A DNA stretch of 64,000 nt from an uncultured Pirellulaceae bacterium. Lineage in GTDB: Bacteria > Planctomycetota > Planctomycetia > Pirellulales > Pirellulaceae. The stretch is taken from NCBI GenBank assembly GCA_937944405.1, contig CALDYR010000042.1, forward strand, positions 3,107 to 67,106, given 5' to 3'. Numbering within the stretch: position 1 is the first letter of the stretch; each line of letters opens with the position of its first letter. Made by a program: the position numbers and the translations under genes. Shown in pieces: positions 10,378 to 37,691 of the stretch. The notes below the pieces were generated by a model. The model made no database searches. It saw only the letters and a list, made by a program, of their open reading frames with translations, and was not told where the DNA came from.

Positions 10378-11574
10378 TCATCCCTTTTTCAAAACCGTAC
10401 GCAATCGCCGCACCACCCTTTGGGTTAACGGAAGCATTTGGACCGCTTGGCGGGCGATGCCGGGACGTAAACTCAATATCGCGTTTTGAAACGCAAGTCG
10501 CTGTCCCCAGATTCGGTTGATCGATGAACTGCTATTGGCAGTGCATGAATCTCCCGTTTTGACTCCATCTCGATGCAGATAGTCCAAGTTTTTCGCCTCT
10601 ACCTGCGTTCCAGGTGAATACGCTGAAAACTGGTCGTCGTAGGCCGTTTTATAAGAGCACACGTAATCTCCTGAGCGAATATCGGAGATCATCGCGATAC
10701 GACGTCCATCGAGCATCAAACTTAAAAACCTTACCTTTCCAGCGGCAGCACTTTCGCTGATAAGGCTTCGGTAAAACGCGCGCGTGTCGTCGGCACACCC
10801 CAAGGCGGTTCCTGACTCCCCCTTCCAACCGGAGGCTTCAATGGCCATGAAGTCTTCGGCAAGCTGTTGAAAGTCACTGTTTTCATCGGTTGATTCCCAA
10901 GTCACTTCTCCCTGACCGCTCAGTCGCCGCAATAATCGGCGAAGCTTCTTCTGCAGGCTTTTAGAAACGTTATTTTGAAGGTATAGCTCCGACGACGGTT
11001 CTGCCACAAACGCGGCGCGTTGAAAATGATCGCGCTGAAATCGAAGGATGTTCCGTTGCTGCTCAACGGTCTTCAAAACAGAATCGAATTGTGGTTCGGC
11101 GACGACGGTGTCAAGGCTGAGGATGGCGTACTGCGATTCCAGCAAGGCCTCGCAAATCTTCGCCCAAGCGGCAACTCCATGCGTTTTACACAACAAAGGC
11201 GTTGCATCAAAACACTGGTCGTGCTTCCAGACTTCGGCTGTTTTAAACGGTAATCGAAAGACGCTTTTGGTTTCAATGGGGACAACCGCAACCAAGTTTT
11301 TCTCGGGTGCTGCGGCTACATTTTCAACCACCAACAACCGTACTGAATCGTTTCCTAGGTGCTCCAATGCGGGGATCAAATAGTTCGGTTCCAAAGCAAC
11401 GTTTCGCCACAGCGGTGAATCCGCCAGACGGTTCCAAGCAGGTTCAAGGGATCGGAGTTCGGCGTTATCAACCCATCTGCTTTTGAACTCTGGAGTTACA
11501 TCGGTCTGCTCAGGTGCGTTAACAACTACAGGGAATTCAGCCACAAAAGGACTTGCAAGATTCGCTTCGTACAT
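10378..11574 (-). CDS. GNAT-family (CelD/BcsL, Acetyltransf_6-like) protein
   Basis: KKLRRLLRRL..WKG..G..LMLDGRRIA..YKTAYDDQFSAYSPG pattern. ATG at 11574 is preferred over the ORF start at 11706. Confidence 0.8.
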   Translation of the reverse strand: MYEANLASPFVAEFPVVVNAPEQTDVTPEFKSRWVDNAELRSLEPAWNRLADSPLWRNVALEPNYLIPALEHLGNDSVRLLVVENVAAAPEKNLVAVVPIETKSVFRLPFKTAEVWKHDQCFDATPLLCKTHGVAAWAKICEALLESQYAILSLDTVVAEPQFDSVLKTVEQQRNILRFQRDHFQRAAFVAEPSSELYLQNNVSKSLQKKLRRLLRRLSGQGEVTWESTDENSDFQQLAEDFMAIEASGWKGESGTALGCADDTRAFYRSLISESAAAGKVRFLSLMLDGRRIAMISDIRSGDYVCSYKTAYDDQFSAYSPGTQVEAKNLDYLHRDGVKTGDSCTANSSSSINRIWGQRLAFQNAILSLRPGIARQAVQMLPLTQRVVRRLRTVLKKG

Positions 11575-29561: not shown

Positions 29562-31241
29562 CTATTCGTCGGTAACACAACCTTCGGAAGCCGATTTCAC
29601 ATTCTTAATGTATTTATACAACGTACCGCGTTTTACTTTAAAATCAGGCGCCGTCCATTTTTCACGCCGAGTGTTAAGTTCCTCATCGGAGAGTTCTACA
29701 TCTAGGCGGTTGGTATCAGCGTTGATAGTGATTTTGTCTCCGTTTTGCACCAAAGCCAACGGACCGCCCACTTGAGCCTCAGGGGTGATGTGGCCGACGA
29801 TGAAACCGTGCGATCCCCCTGAGAACCTACCGTCGGTCAACAACGCGACATCGTTGCCCAAACCGGCTCCCATGATTGCCGATGTCGGGGTCAGCATTTC
29901 CGGCATCCCGGGGCCTCCCTTGGGCCCCTCGTAGCGAATAATGACGACGTCCCCTTTGTTGATCTTATTTTCGGAAAGGGCTTCGACCATCGCTTCTTCG
30001 GAATCAAACACATGGGCGGTGCCGACGAATTCCAGCCCTTCTTTGCCGGTAATCTTCGCCACTGCGCCTTCGGGGGCGAGGTTCCCGTAAAGAATCTGCA
30101 AATGGCCGGACTTCTTGATCGGGTTACTCAGCGGTCGGATGATATCTTGCCCAGATTCTAAATCTGGTAATTCAGCCAGATTTTCGGCCAGTGTTTTCCC
30201 GGTCACGGTCAAGCAACTTCCATCGATCAAGCCTTCGGCCAGCAACAGTTTCATCACCGCTGGCGTTCCGCCGATCGCGTGCAGATCTTCTTGAACGTAC
30301 TTCCCGCTGGGCTTCATGTCTGCCAGCAGCGGAATTCGATCGCTGACCGACTGCCAGTCATCCAAAGTCAACGGTACCTCGACGCTGCGTGCCATCGCAA
30401 TCAGGTGCAACACCGCGTTGGTCGAACCGCCGAGCGCCATGACCACCACCATCGCATTTTCAAAGGCCGCCCGAGTCATAATATCGCGCGGTTTGATATC
30501 CCTTTTCATTAGGTTCAACATCGCCGCTCCGGCACGATGACACTCGTCGATCTTCGCGGGATCTTCGGCCGGTATCGAGGCACTAAAAGGCAGCGCCATC
30601 CCCAACGCTTCGATCGCGCTAGCCATTGTGTTGGCGGTATACATACCACCGCAGGCGCCTGCACCGGGGCACGAATTTTTTACGATCGCGCGGCGCTGTT
30701 GGTCGTCAATCTTCCCTGAAACGTATTCACCGTAAGACTGGAATGCGGAAACCAAATCCAGCTTGCATCCGTTAAGCTTTCCCGCTCGAATCGTCCCTCC
30801 GTAAACCATCAGGCTGGGGCGATTCAAACGCCCCATCGCGATTAAGCAACCCGGCATGTTCTTATCACATCCCGGCAGCGCGATGCACGCGTCATACCAT
30901 TGGCCACCCATGATGGTTTCGATTGAATCAGCAATCAGATCGCGCGACTGCAGCGAAAAACTCATCCCGTCGGTGCCCATCGAAATGCCGTCGCTAACAC
31001 CAACGGTGTTAAAACGCATTCCCACCAACCCGGCTTCGACAACGCCCTGTTTCACCTCAGCGGCCAACGCGTTGAGGTGCATGTTGCAGGTATTGCCTTC
31101 GTACCAAACGCTGGCAATGCCGACTTGAGGTTTGTTCATATCCTCTTCGGTCAAACCAGTGCCATAAAGCATCGCCTGAGACGCACCCTGCACCGGCGGT
31201 TGGGTAATACGTCGACTGTACTTGTTCAATTCAGTGGTCAT
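29562..31241 (-). CDS. ilvD: Dihydroxy-acid dehydratase
   Basis: [47 protein letters not shown]. Confidence 0.97.
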
Positions 31242-31513
31242 AGAAAACTCGATGAAAACTCGGATCAGAGGTTGATTTAAGATTACGTCTTAACGTTCGA
31301 TGAGCCAACCTGCGGTTCACCCACCAACCCGCATCGCAAACGCACGAAGATGCCCAAAACAGTGTCTCAACAAACCCAAACGCGCTACTACGGTGCCCAT
31401 TTTTAAAACAGGTTATTTCCGTAACCTTGTGGCACCGAGTGCGCTCCAAGCCTGCGTTTTCCAGTGCATCCACTACGATTTCGAAGCTTGCGACTAAAAA
31501 ACAAGGACAGCCT

Positions 31514-31556
31514 AAAAACAGGGTAGGCCACCAAGCGAAACTTGAAAGCCTACCCT
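31514..31556 (-). terminator. Intrinsic terminator after the TIM-barrel gene
   Basis: On the minus strand, AGGGTAGGC..GCCTACCCT stem with an inner CAAG/CTTG stem, followed by GTTTTT. Confidence 0.75.
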
Positions 31557-31589
31557 ATTACAAAGTCATAAAATCCGAAGCGCCAACGA

Positions 31590-32582
31590 TTACTTGGTAG
31601 CCGCTTCGGCATTTTCTTCAGTGCGTGCTTCGGCTGGTTTGGATTCGCCGGTTGCCGCTTCGCCTTCGGCGGTTTCATCATCGGCCGCTTCACCTTCGAC
31701 GGCAACCGCGTTAGGGTCGATCGTTGGGTCTTCACCGGCGACCAACTGAGCCAACCGGTAGCTCAACTTGGCGACCACTTTATGACGATTGATGTCTGAG
31801 TAGGTCGTCGCGTCGGTGGCGACTGAAATTGCGCCTTGATAATCCTTCTCACGCAACAGTTCCGCCAATCGAACCGACAGCGAATTTTCACCATCGCCGG
31901 GCAACAAGCGATCTCCTTTTTTAAGATCTTTTTTGTCAGCCGTTGGCGACAGATCGGCAAAACGAACTTCGGTGACCATTTCATTGATGTCCAGATCCGA
32001 AAGCTGATCTAAGGCCCCGTCGCCTGCTTGCCACTCGAAAGTGTCAAGGCAGATTCCAACGTTGGTGTGTCCGATTGTTTTGGCCAAAGTCAAAATCTCT
32101 TCAGCGGTTTGGATGAATTTATAATCGCCAGCAACTTTCCCCACCTTCGACGCTTGCAAGAATAAACCAGCACGCATTTCAGCATCTTTTAGCTTGTCGG
32201 CGACCTCCGAAATGCGTTCACGATGCTTTTCGAAGTTATCCTGAAACGCGAACTCCTTGGCCTGGGGCGCGATTCGGATCACGCATTGATGAGTCCCTAA
32301 CGTTTGGGCCAAGTCGATGATCGTGTCCAGCTTTTCGCTCTGTTTGGCGAATACCTCGTTGGTCGCGCCAAAATCCATCGGCATATCAAAAGTACCAAGG
32401 TCGATCCGCGCCGACTGTAAAAACTGACATGCAAACTCTTTGCCCAACGTATCGTGGCGACCGACCAAATCATTCATGTCGATCTCAACACCGTCGAACT
32501 TGTGCGTCAGCGCCAACTCAATCAGCTCGTTTTGCCGACCGGCGACGCCTAATCCGCCACTGTTGAGAATTTTGTAATGCAT
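31590..32582 (-). CDS. Sugar phosphate isomerase/epimerase-like (xylose isomerase-like TIM barrel) protein
   Basis: KFDGVEIDM, NVGICLDTFEW, RLLPGDG and YQGAISV pattern of AP_endonuc_2-like proteins, with an acidic tail. Confidence 0.75.
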   Translation of the reverse strand: MHYKILNSGGLGVAGRQNELIELALTHKFDGVEIDMNDLVGRHDTLGKEFACQFLQSARIDLGTFDMPMDFGATNEVFAKQSEKLDTIIDLAQTLGTHQCVIRIAPQAKEFAFQDNFEKHRERISEVADKLKDAEMRAGLFLQASKVGKVAGDYKFIQTAEEILTLAKTIGHTNVGICLDTFEWQAGDGALDQLSDLDINEMVTEVRFADLSPTADKKDLKKGDRLLPGDGENSLSVRLAELLREKDYQGAISVATDATTYSDINRHKVVAKLSYRLAQLVAGEDPTIDPNAVAVEGEAADDETAEGEAATGESKPAEARTEENAEAATK

Positions 32583-32905
32583 GGTTTCTCCCTAAATATC
32601 GTTTGGCCTAGCCAGCAAGCGGAGAATCGAAATTCTCGACCGCAGCTCAAAAGTGCCGCGCCAACGTGATTGAATGAGTCTGTGAAAAGCGCGAGATTAT
32701 GGCAGAGAACCCTTTTTTTTTCCAGTGTACTTGCATTTTAAAGGAGATCTTTCGCATTTAAAATTGCCACCGCTGTCGTCTTCATCCTTCTGGCTCAATA
32801 GAATTGGCAGCAGAACGTCCCCGCCGCCACCGACTCCACCATCCGGTGACGGCGGACGAGCGTCACATTTCTAAATCGCGACTTACCTTTGACGGCCCCA
32901 AAACC

Positions 32906-33874
32906 ATGCTCAAGTCTCTTTCAGCGTTTCGCAGCCGACGGCGCCCTGATGCCCTGTTTAATGATTGCCTCCTCCTGGCGCTCGGAATCTGGATGGTGGC
33001 GGCGACCGGGCTGATCTCCTCGCCTGCCAGGGCTCAAATTGCCCCCTTACTAAAAAAAAACGAACTGATTTATCTCTGGCCTGGCCTTGCCCCCGGCGAA
33101 ACTGACCGCAAATCCGGGACCGTGCAGCCTCCAAAAGCCAAAGACCCTAGCATCAATCGCATCGAAGACATTTCGGCCCCGTCGATCAAGGTCTACCCGT
33201 CGGACCGCCCCAACGGAACGGCGATTGTGATCCTGCCCGGCGGCGGTTACCGCTACGTGGTCGATAATATGGAAGGATCGGAAATGGCCCCGATTTTCAA
33301 CCCGCTGGGATTGACCGTGTTTGTCGTCAGCTACCGTGTCTCTGGTGATAAATCTCCACAAGCGTGGCGAAAACCCGTTCAGGACGCTCAGCGCGCGATC
33401 CGTTGGGTTCGCCACCACGCCGACCGCTACGCTGTCGCCCCCGACAAAGTCGGCCTGATGGGATTTTCAGCCGGCGGGCAAGCCGCCACGATCGCCACCA
33501 CCGCCACCCAAGCCTATTATAAAAGCACTGACCCGATCGACAGCCATCCTTGCGTTCCCGATTTTTCGATGCTGGTTTACCCGTGGCGGTTAGAAAGCGC
33601 CGAAGGCAAACTGCGCTCCATGATCACCGTGACACCGCAAACGCCGCCAACCTTAATCGTTCACACCCACGACGACAAATCAGCGCTATCGACCGGATCG
33701 GCCAAACTCTACCTCGCGCTCAAAGAAGCCAACGTGGAGACGGAGCTGCACATTTTTCGCAGCGGCGGCCACGGTTATGGACTTCGCAGACGGCCCAACA
33801 GCAACATTCACCGCTGGCCAGAACTGGCGGTTGACTGGTTGAGACTCTCGGGATGGGCGCGCGTCCAAGAGTAG
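32906..33874 (+). CDS. Secreted alpha/beta hydrolase (esterase, BD-FAE-like)
   Basis: PGGGY oxyanion motif, GFSAGG nucleophile, HTHDD and GGHGYG. Start uncertain (ORF opens at 32804). Confidence 0.88.
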   Translation: MLKSLSAFRSRRRPDALFNDCLLLALGIWMVAATGLISSPARAQIAPLLKKNELIYLWPGLAPGETDRKSGTVQPPKAKDPSINRIEDISAPSIKVYPSDRPNGTAIVILPGGGYRYVVDNMEGSEMAPIFNPLGLTVFVVSYRVSGDKSPQAWRKPVQDAQRAIRWVRHHADRYAVAPDKVGLMGFSAGGQAATIATTATQAYYKSTDPIDSHPCVPDFSMLVYPWRLESAEGKLRSMITVTPQTPPTLIVHTHDDKSALSTGSAKLYLALKEANVETELHIFRSGGHGYGLRRRPNSNIHRWPELAVDWLRLSGWARVQE

Positions 33875-33954
33875 CACCAGCCAAGGCCGCATGGCCACCG
33901 GTCTCCAACTTTTGCCATAGACAAGCATTTCTGGGCAGATAAGCTATGGGCTTC

Positions 33955-34160
33955 CAACGTTCAGGTGATCCCCCGGCCGCATGCCGGCGGATTAAAGGGA
34001 AGCTCGGTGAGATTCCGACACGGCCCCGCCGCTGTAATCTTCGATTGCAACATTCTTCTATCGCCATTGCCGGTATTAAAACTGCCAGCGAGAAGGCCGG
34101 ATGTTGCTGACCCGATTTCATCATCGCGTCTTGAGAAGGAGTCAGAATACCTGCCTGTCC
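33955..34160 (+). ncRNA. Cobalamin (B12) riboswitch
   Basis: Canonical elements in order: CAGGTG (33962), TTAAAGGGAA-GCTCGGTGAGATTCCGACACGGCCCCGCCGCTGTAA (33992-34037), GCCATTG (34063), GAGAAGGC (34090) and the B12 box GAGTCAGAATACCTGCC (34139-34155). P1 is CAGGT/GCCTG. Confidence 0.93.
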
Positions 34161-34210
34161 GTTTTCGACACTAACGCTCTGCGCGGGACGAGCGGTTCGA
34201 GGAACGAATT

Positions 34211-35095
34211 TTGAATATAGCTGAAAATCCAACAAGGATACTGCGCCCGAATTGCGCGATCTGTCGGGACTCGATCTGTCGGGACTCGGACTATCGGTGC
34301 GCGGTCTATCAAAAACGCCGCGGATTCACGCTCGTGGAACTGCTGGTGGTGATTGCGATAATCGGAATTTTGATCGGCATGCTGCTGCCGGCAATCCAAA
34401 GCGTACGTGAATCAGCCAGATCCATCGTCTGCCGCAACAACCTCCGCCAGATCGGGCTGGCGCTGCAAAACTACCACAGCGCATTCATGGAATTTCCTAC
34501 CGGGGTCAAAGGGTTCCGTCCCTTTGGCAGCACCGACCCCAGCAAGCTCAATCTTGCTTGGTCTGTCTTTATTCTGCCGCAACTGGAACAGGGCAATCTG
34601 TTTCAGCAAATCGACACCAATCAAGCTTACGACAGTGCCCATAACGCTGGCCCCGGTTCGCAACCGATTGCTTCTTTCCAGTGCCCCTCGGCGACCCGCG
34701 CCCCGACCACAGCAGGCGACCTGGGGATTATCGACTACGGTGGTATTTTCGGTGAACGCATCAACAGCCGCAACGATCCGCCCAAGGGGTGCATGATTTT
34801 CGATCAACCCATCACCATCAGCGCCATCACCGACGGCACTTCCAACACGCTGATCGTTGCCGAAGACAGCCAATTCAGCGACGGCCAGTGGATCAATGGT
34901 CGCAACGTTTTCGACCAAGCCTTCGCCATCAACGCGGCTCCCCCGTTTGAGAACGATATTCGCAGCAATCACCCCGGCGGGGCCAACGGCGTGTTCGCCG
35001 ACGGCCATGTCCAGTTTTTGGACGAAGCCACGGAACTGTTCACCCTGGGTGCGATTTGCACCCGCGCTACTGGCGAAACGCCAGGCATTTTTTAA
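34211..35095 (+). CDS. DUF1559 prepilin-type N-terminal cleavage/methylation, H-X9-DG protein
   Basis: KRRG|FTLVELLVVIAIIGILIGMLLPAIQ..RESAR..CRNNLRQIGLALQNYH, ITDGTSNT, HPGGANGVFADGHV; GAGGA Shine-Dalgarno 7 nt before the TTG. Confidence 0.93.
   Translation: MNIAENPTRILRPNCAICRDSICRDSDYRCAVYQKRRGFTLVELLVVIAIIGILIGMLLPAIQSVRESARSIVCRNNLRQIGLALQNYHSAFMEFPTGVKGFRPFGSTDPSKLNLAWSVFILPQLEQGNLFQQIDTNQAYDSAHNAGPGSQPIASFQCPSATRAPTTAGDLGIIDYGGIFGERINSRNDPPKGCMIFDQPITISAITDGTSNTLIVAEDSQFSDGQWINGRNVFDQAFAINAAPPFENDIRSNHPGGANGVFADGHVQFLDEATELFTLGAICTRATGETPGIF
34258..34287. repeat. Exact 15-bp tandem duplication (ICRDS x2)
   Basis: GATCTGTCGGGACTC twice, in the prepilin leader. Confidence 0.9.
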
Positions 35096-35140
35096 TTCCT
35101 ACAAACCCTTTCCATCTTTTGAAACGACAGAAACGACACC

Positions 35141-36013
35141 ATGAAAACCCTTTTTACTTCTCTGATAGCCTTTTTGATTCTGACCGCCGCAACCAGCACA
35201 GAAGCCCAGACGATCGTCGATTTCGAGGAACTCACCGTCTTTGATGCAACCCTTGCGGCCCCGTCTGGATTCCAATTGCTTGGTGCCGGCGATGTCTTTA
35301 ACGGATTTGCTGCTGGGGCTAACGTGGGGGGATTCGACAGCCAAGGAGTTTTTTTTAACAGCGCAGAAACCGCCGCCGGATTCTCGTACTCCCGTTTCGT
35401 TAACACCACTACTCCCGGGTTCACCAACCAGTTCGCAGCCTTCCCCGGTGGTGGTTCTGATGGGGCCGGCAATGCCATTGCGGGACAAAATTACGGTGTC
35501 GTATTCACCGGTTCGTCGACCTTACCCGACGGGACACCTACCAACGGAGCGAGTCTGGTTTTCGACAACTCCGCCAATCTTGACTCCATCGACATCGCTA
35601 ACACGACCTTTACCACTCAATACTTTTTGAACGGCTTTGACGGTTTCGATCCAGAACCCAATCCCCTCCAGCAGTTTACCGCAGAAGGCGATTTCCTATC
35701 TCTCATCATCGAAGGTTTTGATGCCGACGGTAATCTAACTGGTTCCAGCACCAATGACCTGGCGCGTTTCACTAGCGGCAACCTCGAATTCATCGATCAA
35801 TGGCAGACCATCGATTTAGACGGTTTTGACAACACGCAATCGCTGAGCTTCTCCTTAGCGTCGAACGACTTCGATTCAACTTTCGGATTGAACATTCCGG
35901 CTTATGTAGCCATCGACAATCTACAATTCGTTGCGGTGCCCGAACCGAACGCTGCGTGCGCTTTGTTTTGTTGTGTGTTGGCTATGGCTACGACCCGATT
36001 TAAAAGAGCGTGA
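35141..36013 (+). CDS. DUF4465-like protein with a C-terminal PEP-CTERM-type sorting signal
   Basis: Signal peptide; GFSYS..TTTPGFTNQFAAFPGGG..NYGVVF, NTT, GDFLSLIIEGFD..TG, QWQTIDL and FGLNIPAYVAIDNL (DUF4465 pattern); VPEP, hydrophobic helix, basic tail (RFKRA). Confidence 0.85.
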   Translation: MKTLFTSLIAFLILTAATSTEAQTIVDFEELTVFDATLAAPSGFQLLGAGDVFNGFAAGANVGGFDSQGVFFNSAETAAGFSYSRFVNTTTPGFTNQFAAFPGGGSDGAGNAIAGQNYGVVFTGSSTLPDGTPTNGASLVFDNSANLDSIDIANTTFTTQYFLNGFDGFDPEPNPLQQFTAEGDFLSLIIEGFDADGNLTGSSTNDLARFTSGNLEFIDQWQTIDLDGFDNTQSLSFSLASNDFDSTFGLNIPAYVAIDNLQFVAVPEPNAACALFCCVLAMATTRFKRA

Positions 36014-36040: not shown

Positions 36041-36238
36041 TTAAGACTTTTTCTTCTTCCGCTTTTTATTGCTCTTTTTCCTCTGCTTAGCTTTCTTTTT
36101 CAAATCGGTGTAGTACTTTTCTTCGGTCGCTTCGTCTTTAAATGCCGGGCGTCGCGGCCGAGGGACACACACTACTAAGAAACCCAAAAACACTAACGCC
36201 GCGACCAGCGCGTACCCCAAAGTGTATTGTTCCGCCAT
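36041..36238 (-). CDS. Small single-TM protein with a Lys-rich tail
   Basis: MAEQYTLGYALVAALVFLGFLVVCVPRPRR..KKKAKQRKKSNKKRKKKKS, 65 aa from ATG 36238. Confidence 0.6.
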   Translation of the reverse strand: MAEQYTLGYALVAALVFLGFLVVCVPRPRRPAFKDEATEEKYYTDLKKKAKQRKKSNKKRKKKKS

Positions 36239-36353
36239 CTGTCGCTCCCGCAAAATGATTCGTGTTATCCGCAGTCTAATTCGAGCCACCGCCAACAGCA
36301 AGCCAGCCCCAAATGACCGATTGGCTCAATCACCGACGCTGTCTCGCCTCTTG

Positions 36354-37691
36354 TTAACCTAACTTTTCCTTTAGAAAATCGCACAGATCCTGATTGGTTT
36401 GGGTTAGCTCGAACTGGACCTGGTTTTTGTCGGCCATCGTTTTGACGCTCAGTTTGCCCTGCTCAAGTTCGTCTTTGCCGGCCACGATCACCGCACCAAA
36501 CCCTTGTCGATCAGCGTATTTCAGTTGTTGTTTCAATTTCTTGGCGTCGGGAAACACCTCGGTTTTGATTCCCTGCCGCCGCAACGAAGCCGCGATTTCC
36601 AAATAGGTGTTGAGATTTTCAGCGTCGAACTGAACCACCATCACATCCGCAGTGGTCTTCACCGGTTCGATCATTTCCAACTGCTGCATCGCGGTCAGCA
36701 ACCGATCAAGCCCCAAAGACGCACCGATGCCGGGGTACTGTTGTTTGGTGTACAACTGAGCCAGATTATCGTAACGCCCGCCTGAACATACCGAACCGAT
36801 CTCTGGTAAATCCCCCAAGAACGTCTCGAAAATCGTTCCCGTGTAATAGTCCAACCCACGCGCAATCGAAACGTCCAGCGTTAAATTTTCATCGGTAATC
36901 CCGACCGCTGATGTTGCATCGACCAACTGCTTTAACTCAACGAAGCCTTCTTCGGCAAGTTCGTTACCGGCACACAGCGGTTCCAACTGCCCCAGCACTT
37001 CTTGGTTAGAACCCGCTATCAGGGTCAGCTTCATCACGCCTTCGATTTGAGCGGCCGATGCGTTTGCGGCCTCCATCATTTCGGCCTTTACTTTTTCGGG
37101 TCCGATTTTGGCGATTTTATCCAACGCGCGAAGGACTTCGACACTGCGCTGGCCAAGGTCATTTTTTTGCAGCAATCCGTTAAGCACCTTGCGATTGTTG
37201 ATCCGAATCTTAAATCGATCAAACCCAATCGCTTTCATCAAATCAAAAATCACCAGCCCCGTTTCGATGTCGCTGGCGACCGAAGTGGTGCCGATGGTGT
37301 CAAAATCACATTGTGCGAACTCCCGATAACGGCCGGCTTGCGTGTTTTCGCCTCGCCACACCGGGCCGATGTGATAACGTTTAAACGGCATCCCCAACGC
37401 GTTGCCATGTTGGGCAATAAATCGAGCCAAAGGTACGGTCAAGTCAAACCTCATTCCCACGTCACGTTTCCCGTGGTCGATGAAACGAAACATTTGTTTG
37501 TCGGTCTCCGCGCTGCCCTTACCGCAGAGAATTTCGGCGTACTCCAACGCCGGCGTATCGATGGGCGAAAAACCGTAGCTACGGTAAACGTTCCGCGCCA
37601 CTTCCATCAACCGTTCACGCGGAATCATCGATTCGGGAAGGTAGTCGCGAAAACCTTTTAGGGTGCGTGGCTGGATAATTTGGTTGGACAT
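36354..37691 (-). CDS. hisS: Histidyl-tRNA synthetase
   Basis: LKGFRDYLP, MRFDLTVPLAR, GRYREFAQCDFD, RGLDYYTG, GGRYDNL, GLDRL. Confidence 0.97.
   Translation of the reverse strand: MSNQIIQPRTLKGFRDYLPESMIPRERLMEVARNVYRSYGFSPIDTPALEYAEILCGKGSAETDKQMFRFIDHGKRDVGMRFDLTVPLARFIAQHGNALGMPFKRYHIGPVWRGENTQAGRYREFAQCDFDTIGTTSVASDIETGLVIFDLMKAIGFDRFKIRINNRKVLNGLLQKNDLGQRSVEVLRALDKIAKIGPEKVKAEMMEAANASAAQIEGVMKLTLIAGSNQEVLGQLEPLCAGNELAEEGFVELKQLVDATSAVGITDENLTLDVSIARGLDYYTGTIFETFLGDLPEIGSVCSGGRYDNLAQLYTKQQYPGIGASLGLDRLLTAMQQLEMIEPVKTTADVMVVQFDAENLNTYLEIAASLRRQGIKTEVFPDAKKLKQQLKYADRQGFGAVIVAGKDELEQGKLSVKTMADKNQVQFELTQTNQDLCDFLKEKLG

Follow-up and report, generated by a model that had tools for sequence, protein, structure and literature searches.

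The window analysed here, a stretch of 64,000 nucleotides from an uncultured Pirellulaceae bacterium, carries a full-length cobalamin riboswitch aptamer at 33946–34172 on the forward strand, followed on the same strand by a gene for a DUF1559/H-X9-DG type IV pilin-like protein (34211–35095; 294 aa) and a gene for a DUF4465 (BtuJ-family) putative corrinoid-binding protein (35141–36013; 290 aa). The Rfam search matched the covariance model RF00174 at 75.5 bits (E 8.2e-17), well over the gathering score of 31.5, and the match spans model positions 1–189 of 189, in agreement with the sequence-only reading, which had recognised a complete cobalamin riboswitch upstream of a two-gene unit. No other Rfam match was found in the whole window and no second cobalamin riboswitch in the 3.95-Mb genome, so the two genes are the only ones in this genome predicted to be B12-regulated. 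Cobalamin riboswitches generally permit expression at low adenosyl- or methylcobalamin; for this reason the two-gene mRNA is predicted to be repressed by B12 and would be expressed when these cobalamins are scarce. The genome contains no TPP riboswitch, sought as another vitamin switch that might head a DUF1559 gene, and this candidate was dropped.

The aptamer 3′ end is 38 nt from the TTG start codon of the pilin gene, and the intervening expression platform (34173–34210, forward strand) includes a Shine-Dalgarno sequence, GAGGAA, at 34199–34204, 6 nt 5′ of the start. In RNAfold predictions, the segment 34160–34168 at the 3′ edge of the aptamer pairs with the Shine-Dalgarno region, with a folding energy no better than that of shuffled sequences (z 0.36). 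It is plausible that the riboswitch acts on translation, by sequestering the ribosome-binding site. The 3′ neighbours of the DUF4465 gene (36041–36301 and hisS, 36354–37691) lie on the opposite strand, and the unit thus consists of exactly two genes. Neither btuB, btuFCD nor a B12-independent isoenzyme stands under the riboswitch, as had been noted earlier for btuB and btuFCD. The genome encodes 19 prepilin-type ORFs (9 with H-X9-DG), one DUF4465 gene and one cobalamin riboswitch; since all three elements are rare, their adjacency is far beyond chance.

The first gene product is a full member of the DUF1559/H-X9-DG prepilin family (PF07596, TIGR04294) of Planctomycetota–Verrucomicrobiota. Pfam assigned N_methyl to residues 35–59 (6.3e-10) and DUF1559/SBP_bac_10 (PF07596) with 1.8e-49, and NCBIfam assigned the C-terminal H-X9-DG model TIGR04294 (35.9 bits, cut-off 19; motif H254–G265, 34970–35005), which bears out the proposed DUF1559 protein with a prepilin N-terminus. 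The class III signal peptide reads RRG|FTLVE, with cleavage predicted at G38|F39 (34322–34327) and E43 as E+5. To our knowledge, DUF1559, which is among the largest families of Planctomycetota and their relatives, has no known function. In the literature searched it was rarely mentioned and never together with cobalamin, and B12, TonB, pilins and DUF1559 all go unmentioned in a 2025 review of the phylum.

The second gene product has a signal-peptide-like segment (about residues 1–23, 35141–35209), a DUF4465 domain (residues 79–261, 35375–35923; PF14717, 2.2e-32, 113.3 bits, cut-off 25) and a C-terminal PEP-CTERM sorting tail, VPEP-NAACALFCCVLAMATT-RFKRA (residues 266–290, 35936–36010). P267, E268, P269 and R286 are nearly invariant among 47 homologues. 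The Pfam PEP-CTERM model remained below reporting for this gene yet was called in orthologues, and an exosortase (PF09721, 106.5 bits) is encoded on contig C114. These features fit the exported DUF4465 protein with a PEP-CTERM tail that had been proposed, and a surface location is likely.

The link drawn earlier between DUF4465 and BtuJ proved sound and has by now become firmer: eight divergent members of the family bind B12, among them Bacteroides thetaiotaomicron BtuJ1 and BtuJ2, Coraliomargarita D5EK51, and one from the planctomycete Mucisphaera calidilacus ('Pan') (PMC13398666; structures 9FCT, 9QPM, 9I2L and 9HMU, also bioRxiv 10.1101/2025.07.01.662609). Sequence search with the protein from this locus matched BtuJ1 (9qpm/9fct) and D5EK51 (9hmu), and its AF2 model (pLDDT 89.9) superposes on BtuJ1 in complex with cyanocobalamin (9qpm, Foldseek E 2.2e-14, probability 1.00, TM 0.76; 9fct, TM 0.77) and on 9hmu and 9i2l (TM 0.70 and 0.63, respectively). 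The reported HI-loop motif N-T-P-A-Y, with its B12-contacting tyrosine (BtuJ1 Y245; PMC13398666), is here NIPAY, with Y255 aligned to Y245. At the other hallmark tyrosine, in the DE-loop helix (BtuJ1 Y146), which is Tyr in most planctomycete homologues, this protein has a conservative change to Phe157 (NTTF), and the copy is divergent overall (113 bits versus 177–193 in other planctomycete copies). It thus shares with BtuJ1, BtuJ2 and D5EK51 the Pfam family, the augmented β-jellyroll, export, a position behind a cobalamin riboswitch and the HI-loop N-x-P-A-Y tyrosine, and by analogy with them it probably binds corrinoids. It differs from these binders, besides the DE-helix change, in having a PEP-CTERM/exosortase tail rather than a lipoprotein or T9SS tail, in having no BtuB, BtuG or BtuH adjoining it or elsewhere in the genome, and in having a pilin as its partner. 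As B12 binding by DUF4465 proteins is already published, the novelty of the locus lies in the pilin.

The genome encodes a complete MetH and lacks MetE and CbiC, which indicates that B12 is required and must be imported. A survey for btuB, as suggested earlier, returned no TBDT Plug domain in the source genome (G000); tblastn detected no BtuF, FecCD or TBDT (the latter with a planctomycete riboswitch-linked query), and BtuC was also absent. With genome completeness at 93%, an apparently absent gene may sit in an assembly gap. In E. coli-type systems, btuB stands under a cobalamin riboswitch. The locus resembles this arrangement (BtuB/TonB and BtuFCD) in that the riboswitch would control the outermost step, with which acquisition of the vitamin begins; it differs in that a pilin-like protein, together with a surface binder, occupies the place of BtuB in a genome without detectable Plug/TBDT, BtuF or FecCD.

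The gene order was also profiled across Planctomycetota. The riboswitch-DUF1559-DUF4465 cassette was kept in 4/4 orthologue contigs, and among named Pirellulaceae loci (searched with an alignment of 20 closer sequences) the pilin gene was immediately 5′ of DUF4465 in 19 of the 22 testable loci and the riboswitch was present in 20 of 21; three named loci had riboswitch-DUF4465 with no pilin adjoining. DUF4465 is rare in the phylum (7 loci in 6 of 401 planctomycete genomes), and all seven loci had a riboswitch and a neighbouring prepilin gene, whether upstream, downstream or divergent. In locus L011 each of the two genes has its own riboswitch, and in L009 the order is riboswitch-DUF4465-X-pilin-BtuF-ABC-FecCD. 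Of 80 planctomycete riboswitches sampled, 16 had DUF1559 as their first gene and 34 a TBDT. DUF1559 thus comes first behind the riboswitch even without DUF4465, at the position occupied by btuB in other lineages. Downstream of such DUF1559 genes lie DUF71, for which an enzymatic role in B12 salvage has been predicted (PMC3541065), and DUF6580, and at times BtuF-FecCD-ABC, to which the pilin gene is directly adjacent in L069 and L009. The neighbour of the pilin gene nearly always encodes an exported product (DUF4465, X or c6). Searches of PDB, Pfam and NCBIfam assigned protein X to no family, and DUF6580, considered for kinship with B12 carriers of solved structure, gave no sequence match in the PDB at E ≤ 10 and is not mentioned in the literature searched. 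Judged from these gene orders, the general feature is the riboswitch-DUF1559 pair, with DUF4465 as one among several partner proteins.

The Plug domain was absent from 14 of the 17 genomes with a riboswitch-led DUF1559 gene, the source genome included, whereas all 20 riboswitch-TBDT genomes had 1–7 Plug domains. In other planctomycete families, and in two genomes of the source genome's own family, a TBDT takes the place of DUF1559 behind the riboswitch, often with BtuF-FecCD-ABC. Genome G156 has two divergent DUF1559 genes without their own riboswitch; a second, weak riboswitch before them was sought with permissive filters and none was found at E ≤ 1. Orthologues of the pilin number in the hundreds at ≥55% identity, the genome's own paralogues reach at most 40%, and B12-linked pilins of distant families cluster apart from the genome's other DUF1559 paralogues. 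Compared with the DUF1559 family overall, whose function is unassigned, this pilin falls in a group of orthologues that is linked to B12 riboswitches. The earlier proposal of this DUF1559 paralogue as the binder's dedicated partner for acquiring B12 finds strong support in the synteny, rearranged yet kept, and in the B12 riboswitches on DUF1559 genes across the phylum; the partnership is an inference from these patterns.

Taken together, the locus points to an undescribed way of vitamin B12 capture. We consider it somewhat better than an even chance (roughly 0.55) that it encodes a B12-repressed, TonB-independent corrinoid-acquisition module in a B12-auxotrophic, TBDT-less planctomycete, with the pilin carrying the vitamin inward. 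In such a module, low adenosyl- or methylcobalamin would allow expression of both genes, possibly by freeing a ribosome-binding site that the platform otherwise sequesters. The DUF4465 protein would be exported by Sec, be anchored to the envelope through the PEP-CTERM/exosortase route and bind corrinoids in the β-jellyroll's loop pocket, as BtuJ1, BtuJ2 and D5EK51 do. The pilin, processed by the genome's prepilin peptidase and assembled into a short pilus or pseudopilus by a T2SS/type IV pilus-like machine, would serve as the envelope-crossing or hand-over element that BtuB and TonB provide in other bacteria. It may dock with the vitamin or its loaded binder and, as the fibre retracts, pull this cargo through a secretin-type pore; alternatively, it may pass the vitamin through the periplasm to a carrier in the inner membrane, for which the DUF6580 membrane protein is a candidate. 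Weighing against this reading are the three riboswitch-DUF4465 loci without a pilin, the riboswitch-less DUF1559 pair of G156, the divergence of the DUF4465 copy and its Phe157, a terminator-like hairpin within the unit, the unremarkable platform fold, pilus machinery genes that are unlinked to the locus, and a DUF1559 head in which no ligand pocket was recognised.

No publication of the riboswitch-DUF1559-DUF4465 module was found in the literature searched. The riboswitch acts as a ligand-specific label that ties one DUF1559 orthologous group to cobalamin, and it does so next to a protein from an experimentally B12-binding family, in B12-needing genomes without any known outer-membrane importer. 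A wider reading, which is possible but doubtful, is that TBDT-less Planctomycetia generally import cobamides independently of TonB via dedicated, riboswitch-controlled DUF1559 pilins. These would be loaded by surface binders such as PEP-CTERM DUF4465 proteins, and assembly and retraction of the pilin, or a pseudopilus spanning the periplasm, would take the vitamin through the outer membrane. The recipient would be a carrier in the inner membrane, BtuFCD in genomes that have it and perhaps DUF6580 in the rest. By extension, DUF1559 paralogues, of which PVC bacteria have hundreds, would be uptake pilins specific to particular substrates. If true, this would give a molecular basis for fibre-mediated macromolecule uptake in planctomycetes. 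The locus is also relevant to marine B12 economics, as algae and particles, which are sites of B12 trade, harbour abundant Pirellulaceae. Carriers of the cassette are in culture (Aporhodopirellula rubra CECT 8075, Mariniblastus fucicola, Stieleria sp. JC731 and Roseiconus lacunae), and the genetically tractable Planctopirus limnophila represents the DUF1559-only type, making both the function of DUF1559 and the uptake of bulky nutrients without TBDTs testable.

The structure of the pilin bears on whether it could instead be a tethered periplasmic binder: unpolymerised, anchored by its helix to the inner membrane, and with a periplasmic head that binds B12 like a membrane-tethered BtuF feeding the carrier. 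The Pfam name of DUF1559 is SBP_bac_10, a genome paper termed DUF1559 proteins solute-binding proteins (PMC4807772), the family has undergone the kind of massive expansion often seen among substrate-binding proteins, and the source genome has no BtuF. However, the AF2 model (pLDDT 78) consists of a 52-residue N-terminal helix (41–92) and a β-sheet head, and Foldseek against PDB gave weak matches only, all to type IV pilins and none to a periplasmic-binding-protein fold, so the fold suggested by the Pfam name was rejected. The head is unlike that of any solved pilin, and a sequence search for solved relatives matched the N-terminal pilin helix alone. A residue signature common to all B12-linked pilins was also sought; it comprised just 3 specific positions and no conserved pocket, and was set aside as uninformative. 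Moreover, a genuine BtuF coexists with the pilin in L009 and L069, and a tethered binder would leave the outer-membrane crossing of a 1.3-kDa vitamin without a TBDT unexplained. We regard this alternative as improbable.

Machinery of the required kind is present: the genome encodes a prepilin peptidase (Peptidase_A24, contig C153), PilT-like (T2SSE) and two PilB-like ATPases (C97), a GspE/F/G cluster (C63), secretins (including one on C30) and the exosortase. In concept, import by the pilin would resemble uptake by type IV pili and the competence pseudopilus (ComGC/PilA-dependent DNA uptake), in which a fibre, on retracting, moves bulky cargo across the outer membrane with no need of TonB, and which likewise involves a prepilin with a class III signal peptide, a peptidase, PilB/PilT-like ATPases and secretins. 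It would differ in having a vitamin as its cargo and a dedicated, riboswitch-controlled pilin. Pili-like fibres on the crateriform structures of planctomycetes bind dextran (Boedeker 2017, PMC5394234).

The same machinery would also suit display rather than import, with the pilin as a substrate-specific, T2SS-like pseudopilin that pushes the binder (DUF4465, X or a small lipoprotein) to the surface while the vitamin enters otherwise. Among named families the N-terminus of the pilin is closest to GspG, an exported protein is nearly always encoded beside it, and PEP-CTERM proteins need to cross the outer membrane. The GspG equivalog TIGR01710, however, scored 44.4 bits (cut-off 88.85), over the N-terminal helix only, and the pilin remained below the cut-off of any named pilin or pseudopilin equivalog. 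Display also sits poorly with the three riboswitch-DUF4465 loci that have no pilin beside them and with the pilin genes found among import genes in L069 and L009, and it does not by itself explain a pilin in the BtuB operon position of TBDT-less genomes. On balance we judge display unlikely.

Many carriers of the cassette are alga- or particle-associated Pirellulaceae, and type IV pilins often serve adhesion and motility. The pilin might accordingly handle no vitamin at all and mediate adhesion, motility or contact with B12-producing partners under starvation, or be part of a co-regulated surface remodelling; DUF1559 proteins are not known to bind a ligand. This seems very improbable given the tight gene order with the B12 binder, kept through rearrangement, and with BtuFCD, DUF71 and DUF6580, the separate riboswitch of each gene in L011, and a distribution that tracks the absence of TBDTs. 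Uptake of the vitamin by the pilin remains the reading that we favour, the mechanistic role of the pilin being deduced from this genomic context.

Two small features of the pilin gene were also recorded. A terminator-like hairpin with a T-run (35070–35093, forward strand) overlaps its last codons and may attenuate read-through into the DUF4465 gene or be incidental. An intrinsic terminator between the two genes was rejected, as the hairpin is not a conserved feature of four orthologous loci (one of which has a 9-nt intergenic gap) and such patterns are over-called here (8 found versus 3.0 expected). Near the 5′ end, a perfect 15-bp tandem duplication (ATCTGTCGGGACTCG twice; 34259–34288, forward strand) encodes ICRDS ICRDS within the predicted leader peptide.

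Rfam models identified a single element in the 64-kb window, a full-length cobalamin riboswitch (33946-34172, + strand) that scored 75.5 bits where the gathering cut-off is 31.5; no other cobalamin riboswitch was present genome-wide (3.95-Mb assembly of 161 contigs, 93% complete). A DUF1559 gene (hereafter, the pilin gene; 34211-35095, 294 aa) starts with TTG 38 bases 3' of the riboswitch, with a GAGGAA Shine-Dalgarno before the TTG, and is followed after 45 bases by a DUF4465 gene (35141-36013, 290 aa; DUF4465 domain, 2.2e-32). The pilin gene ends in a terminator-like hairpin that is not conserved. The genes beyond DUF4465 are convergent with the unit, and therefore exactly two genes are governed by the riboswitch.

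The DUF4465 protein has a signal-peptide-like N-terminus and a C-terminal tail of VPEP, a hydrophobic stretch and RFKRA, and it matched in sequence the B12-binding proteins BtuJ1 of Bacteroides thetaiotaomicron (9QPM/9FCT) and D5EK51 of Coraliomargarita (9HMU). The best PDB matches of its AlphaFold model (pLDDT 89.9, with 47 homologues as input) were cyanocobalamin-bound BtuJ1 (E 2e-14, TM 0.76-0.77), D5EK51 with B12, and BtuJ2. B12 binding has been shown for eight divergent DUF4465 proteins, including 'Pan' of the planctomycete Mucisphaera calidilacus, and two hallmark tyrosines were named for such binders (2026; PMC13398666). The window protein retains the HI-loop tyrosine (NIPAY, Y255) and has Phe157 in place of the DE-helix tyrosine (BtuJ1 Y146). 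Anchored at the cell surface as a lipoprotein, BtuJ1 has nanomolar B12 affinity and serves as an extracellular store of the vitamin (bioRxiv 10.1101/2025.07.01.662609), whereas planctomycete DUF4465 proteins have a nearly invariant PEP-CTERM tail; a Bacteroidota homologue has a T9SS tail instead, and one exosortase gene was found in the source genome. Given the BtuJ1-like fold and sequence, the published binding of the family and the PEP-CTERM tail, the window protein adds to a known B12-binding family a new member with a different anchor, and we infer that this copy binds B12.

The first gene encodes a protein with a prepilin methylation motif (RRG|FTLVELLVV), a DUF1559 domain (Pfam PF07596, 1.8e-49) and a C-terminal H-X9-DG signature (TIGR04294). 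The sequence-only reading had described a complete cobalamin riboswitch ahead of a type-IV-prepilin-like DUF1559 gene and an exported DUF4465-like gene with a PEP-CTERM-type anchor, and this description proved correct in full. The predicted structure (pLDDT 78) has a pilin architecture, with an N-terminal helix of 52 residues leading into a beta-sheet head; its fold matches were weak and solely to type IVb and IVa pilins. No periplasmic-binding-protein fold was among the model's matches, which counts against a rival explanation of this protein as a membrane-tethered periplasmic binder. The head matched no solved structure by sequence, and neither a ligand pocket nor a shared signature was found in it. 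Hundreds of homologues from metagenomes and genomes share 55-81% identity with the pilin, as opposed to ≤40% for the other DUF1559 paralogues of the source genome, which places it in a distinct orthologous group.

The association of riboswitch, DUF1559 and DUF4465 proposed from the sequence held up in a synteny survey, with that order found in all four orthologue loci on long contigs, the most distant of which, in a Mariniblastus-type genome, has 56% identity. When one genome per species was scanned, 24 relatives of the DUF4465 protein emerged, all from Planctomycetota and mostly Pirellulaceae (Aporhodopirellula rubra CECT 8075, Mariniblastus and Aureliella among them). Of the 22 loci whose contigs permitted the test, 19 had a prepilin gene directly ahead of DUF4465; a riboswitch was upstream in 20 of 21 testable loci, and DUF4465 directly followed the riboswitch in three. 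Among 401 evenly sampled planctomycete genomes, DUF4465 was rare (6 genomes, 7 loci), and each of the seven loci combined a riboswitch with a neighbouring prepilin-type gene, the arrangement differing between them. Some had the window-like order, sometimes with an extra exported 'protein X'; others were riboswitch-DUF4465-X-pilin-BtuF-ABC-FecCD (locus L009), riboswitch-X-DUF4465-pilin (L013), divergent genes with one riboswitch only (both loci of genome G156), or divergent pilin and DUF4465 genes each headed by its own riboswitch (L011). The L011 riboswitches lie back to back at 10596-10721(-), matching model positions 47-167 only, and 10926-11130(+). As the linkage was kept through rearrangement and the source genome has only 19 prepilin-type ORFs, it is not due to chance. 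Comparison of window positions 29562-33874 with orthologous contigs (L095, L096 and L098) showed the same flanking gene order, with ilvD, a xylose-isomerase-like TIM-barrel gene and an esterase before riboswitch-pilin-DUF4465 and hisS after it, indicating that the cassette was vertically inherited in this lineage and not recently inserted. One G156 DUF4465 locus (L012:11466-15896) is followed, 0.7 kb downstream, by a LysR regulator, metE and metF, a second link of the cassette to methionine/B12 metabolism.

Of the 401 genomes, 354 carried cobalamin riboswitches, in most cases a single one, and the gene products encoded downstream of 80 of these riboswitches were clustered. The first gene was a TonB-dependent receptor (TBDT) in 34, where BtuF, FecCD and an ABC ATPase commonly came next, and a DUF1559 pilin with no DUF4465 nearby in 16, 14 of which belong to one family of the same class as the source genome. 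Behind DUF1559 in those 16 came genes for a small CxxC lipoprotein, a DUF71/PF01902 enzyme and a DUF6580 membrane protein, and in some cases BtuF; in one locus (L069), BtuF-FecCD-ABC came directly after the pilin. The DUF71 gene (Dph6-like ATP pyrophosphatase; L032:2230-2931, cluster c9, 6 loci) fits the B12-salvage role predicted for bacterial DUF71 in 2012 (PMC3541065).

When 42 of these genomes were searched for Plug domains, no TBDT at all was found in 14 of the 17 with a riboswitch-headed DUF1559 and one in each of the other three, against one to seven in 20/20 TBDT-type genomes. For the TBDT group the difference is to some extent built in; what is informative is that TBDTs are completely absent from the pilin group. 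The two sampled genomes of the source genome's own family lack DUF4465 and have riboswitch-TBDT (one also riboswitch-MetE), thus the pilin cassette holds the regulatory position that BtuB has in close relatives. The 93% complete source genome encodes a complete five-domain MetH and lacks detectable MetE and CbiC, the marker of corrin-ring synthesis; TBDT, BtuF and FecCD were not found in it, and, as observed earlier, no btuB or btuFCD lies under the riboswitch. Subject to this completeness, the organism requires imported B12 and lacks every known importer, with the pilin and the binder its only B12-regulated genes.

The operon is well supported as a B12-starvation-induced corrinoid-capture device with DUF4465 as its envelope-anchored binder. 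That the pilin participates in B12 acquisition and is not a mere passenger is supported by the conserved pairing, the phylum-wide riboswitch-DUF1559 pattern, the absence of TBDTs and the genome's physiology. We favour a role in which the pilin would act as an envelope-crossing or hand-over element in place of BtuB/TonB. The genome encodes a prepilin peptidase, two PilB-like ATPases, one PilT-like ATPase, a GspE/F/G cluster and secretins. In a rival explanation the pilin, as a pseudopilin, serves solely to display the binder. A further rival gives it an indirect adhesive role. The lack of a ligand pocket or shared signature in the pilin head, the loci missing the pilin or its riboswitch, a predicted expression-platform fold no better than that of shuffled sequence, and the terminator-like hairpin count against strong mechanistic claims. 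The cobalamin riboswitch and the DUF4465 family are already known. In the library searched, no paper joined DUF1559 to cobalamin or, in the sense meant here, a pilin to a B12 riboswitch, and the single paper on both Planctomycetes and a cobalamin riboswitch was unrelated. The nearest published idea is that dextran-binding pili-like fibres of crateriform structures may serve uptake (PMC5394234). New here is the unprecedented pilin partner in a riboswitch-controlled B12-scavenging operon, by which DUF1559 gains its first ligand-linked, testable function.

Several other proteins recurred at these riboswitches. The small lipoprotein-like protein (CxxC...C..H; L032:1844-2233, cluster c6, 8 loci) directly follows the riboswitch-led DUF1559 gene, had no family match, and occurs in this arrangement in many genomes of the sister family. 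DUF6580 (PF20221), a polytopic membrane protein found in 10 of the 80 loci (L032, L038, L056, L071 and others), had no PDB relative or literature that we could find; it is a candidate inner-membrane corrinoid carrier, with one homologue in the source genome on another contig (C10:13913-14530). Protein X (290-375 aa, PEP-CTERM or dockerin tail; L009:8200-9327(-), L010:8567-9472(+), L013:8493-9530(+), L109:3184-4056(+), L121:3240-4121(+)) is 35-37% identical across distant planctomycete families, lies between riboswitch, pilin and DUF4465 in several loci, had no Pfam or PDB match and is absent from the source genome; it is possibly another corrinoid binder. In other families, the first genes after the riboswitch (L025, L029, L037; clusters c7, c8, c10) encode a beta-propeller lipoprotein of the lactonase type, an exported protein of 415-510 aa that has no family, or an OprB-type porin whose N-terminus is a coiled coil; these add more uncharacterised proteins to the planctomycete B12 regulon. 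In the window, an 86-aa ORF without a significant family match (36041-36301, - strand), convergent with the operon, combines a single transmembrane helix with a C-terminal tail very rich in lysine (KKKAKQRKKSNKKRKKKKS). The predicted pilin leader is unusually long from the TTG (38 aa vs ~23 aa in the orthologue consensus) and contains a perfect 15-bp tandem duplication (34259-34288; ICRDS ICRDS).
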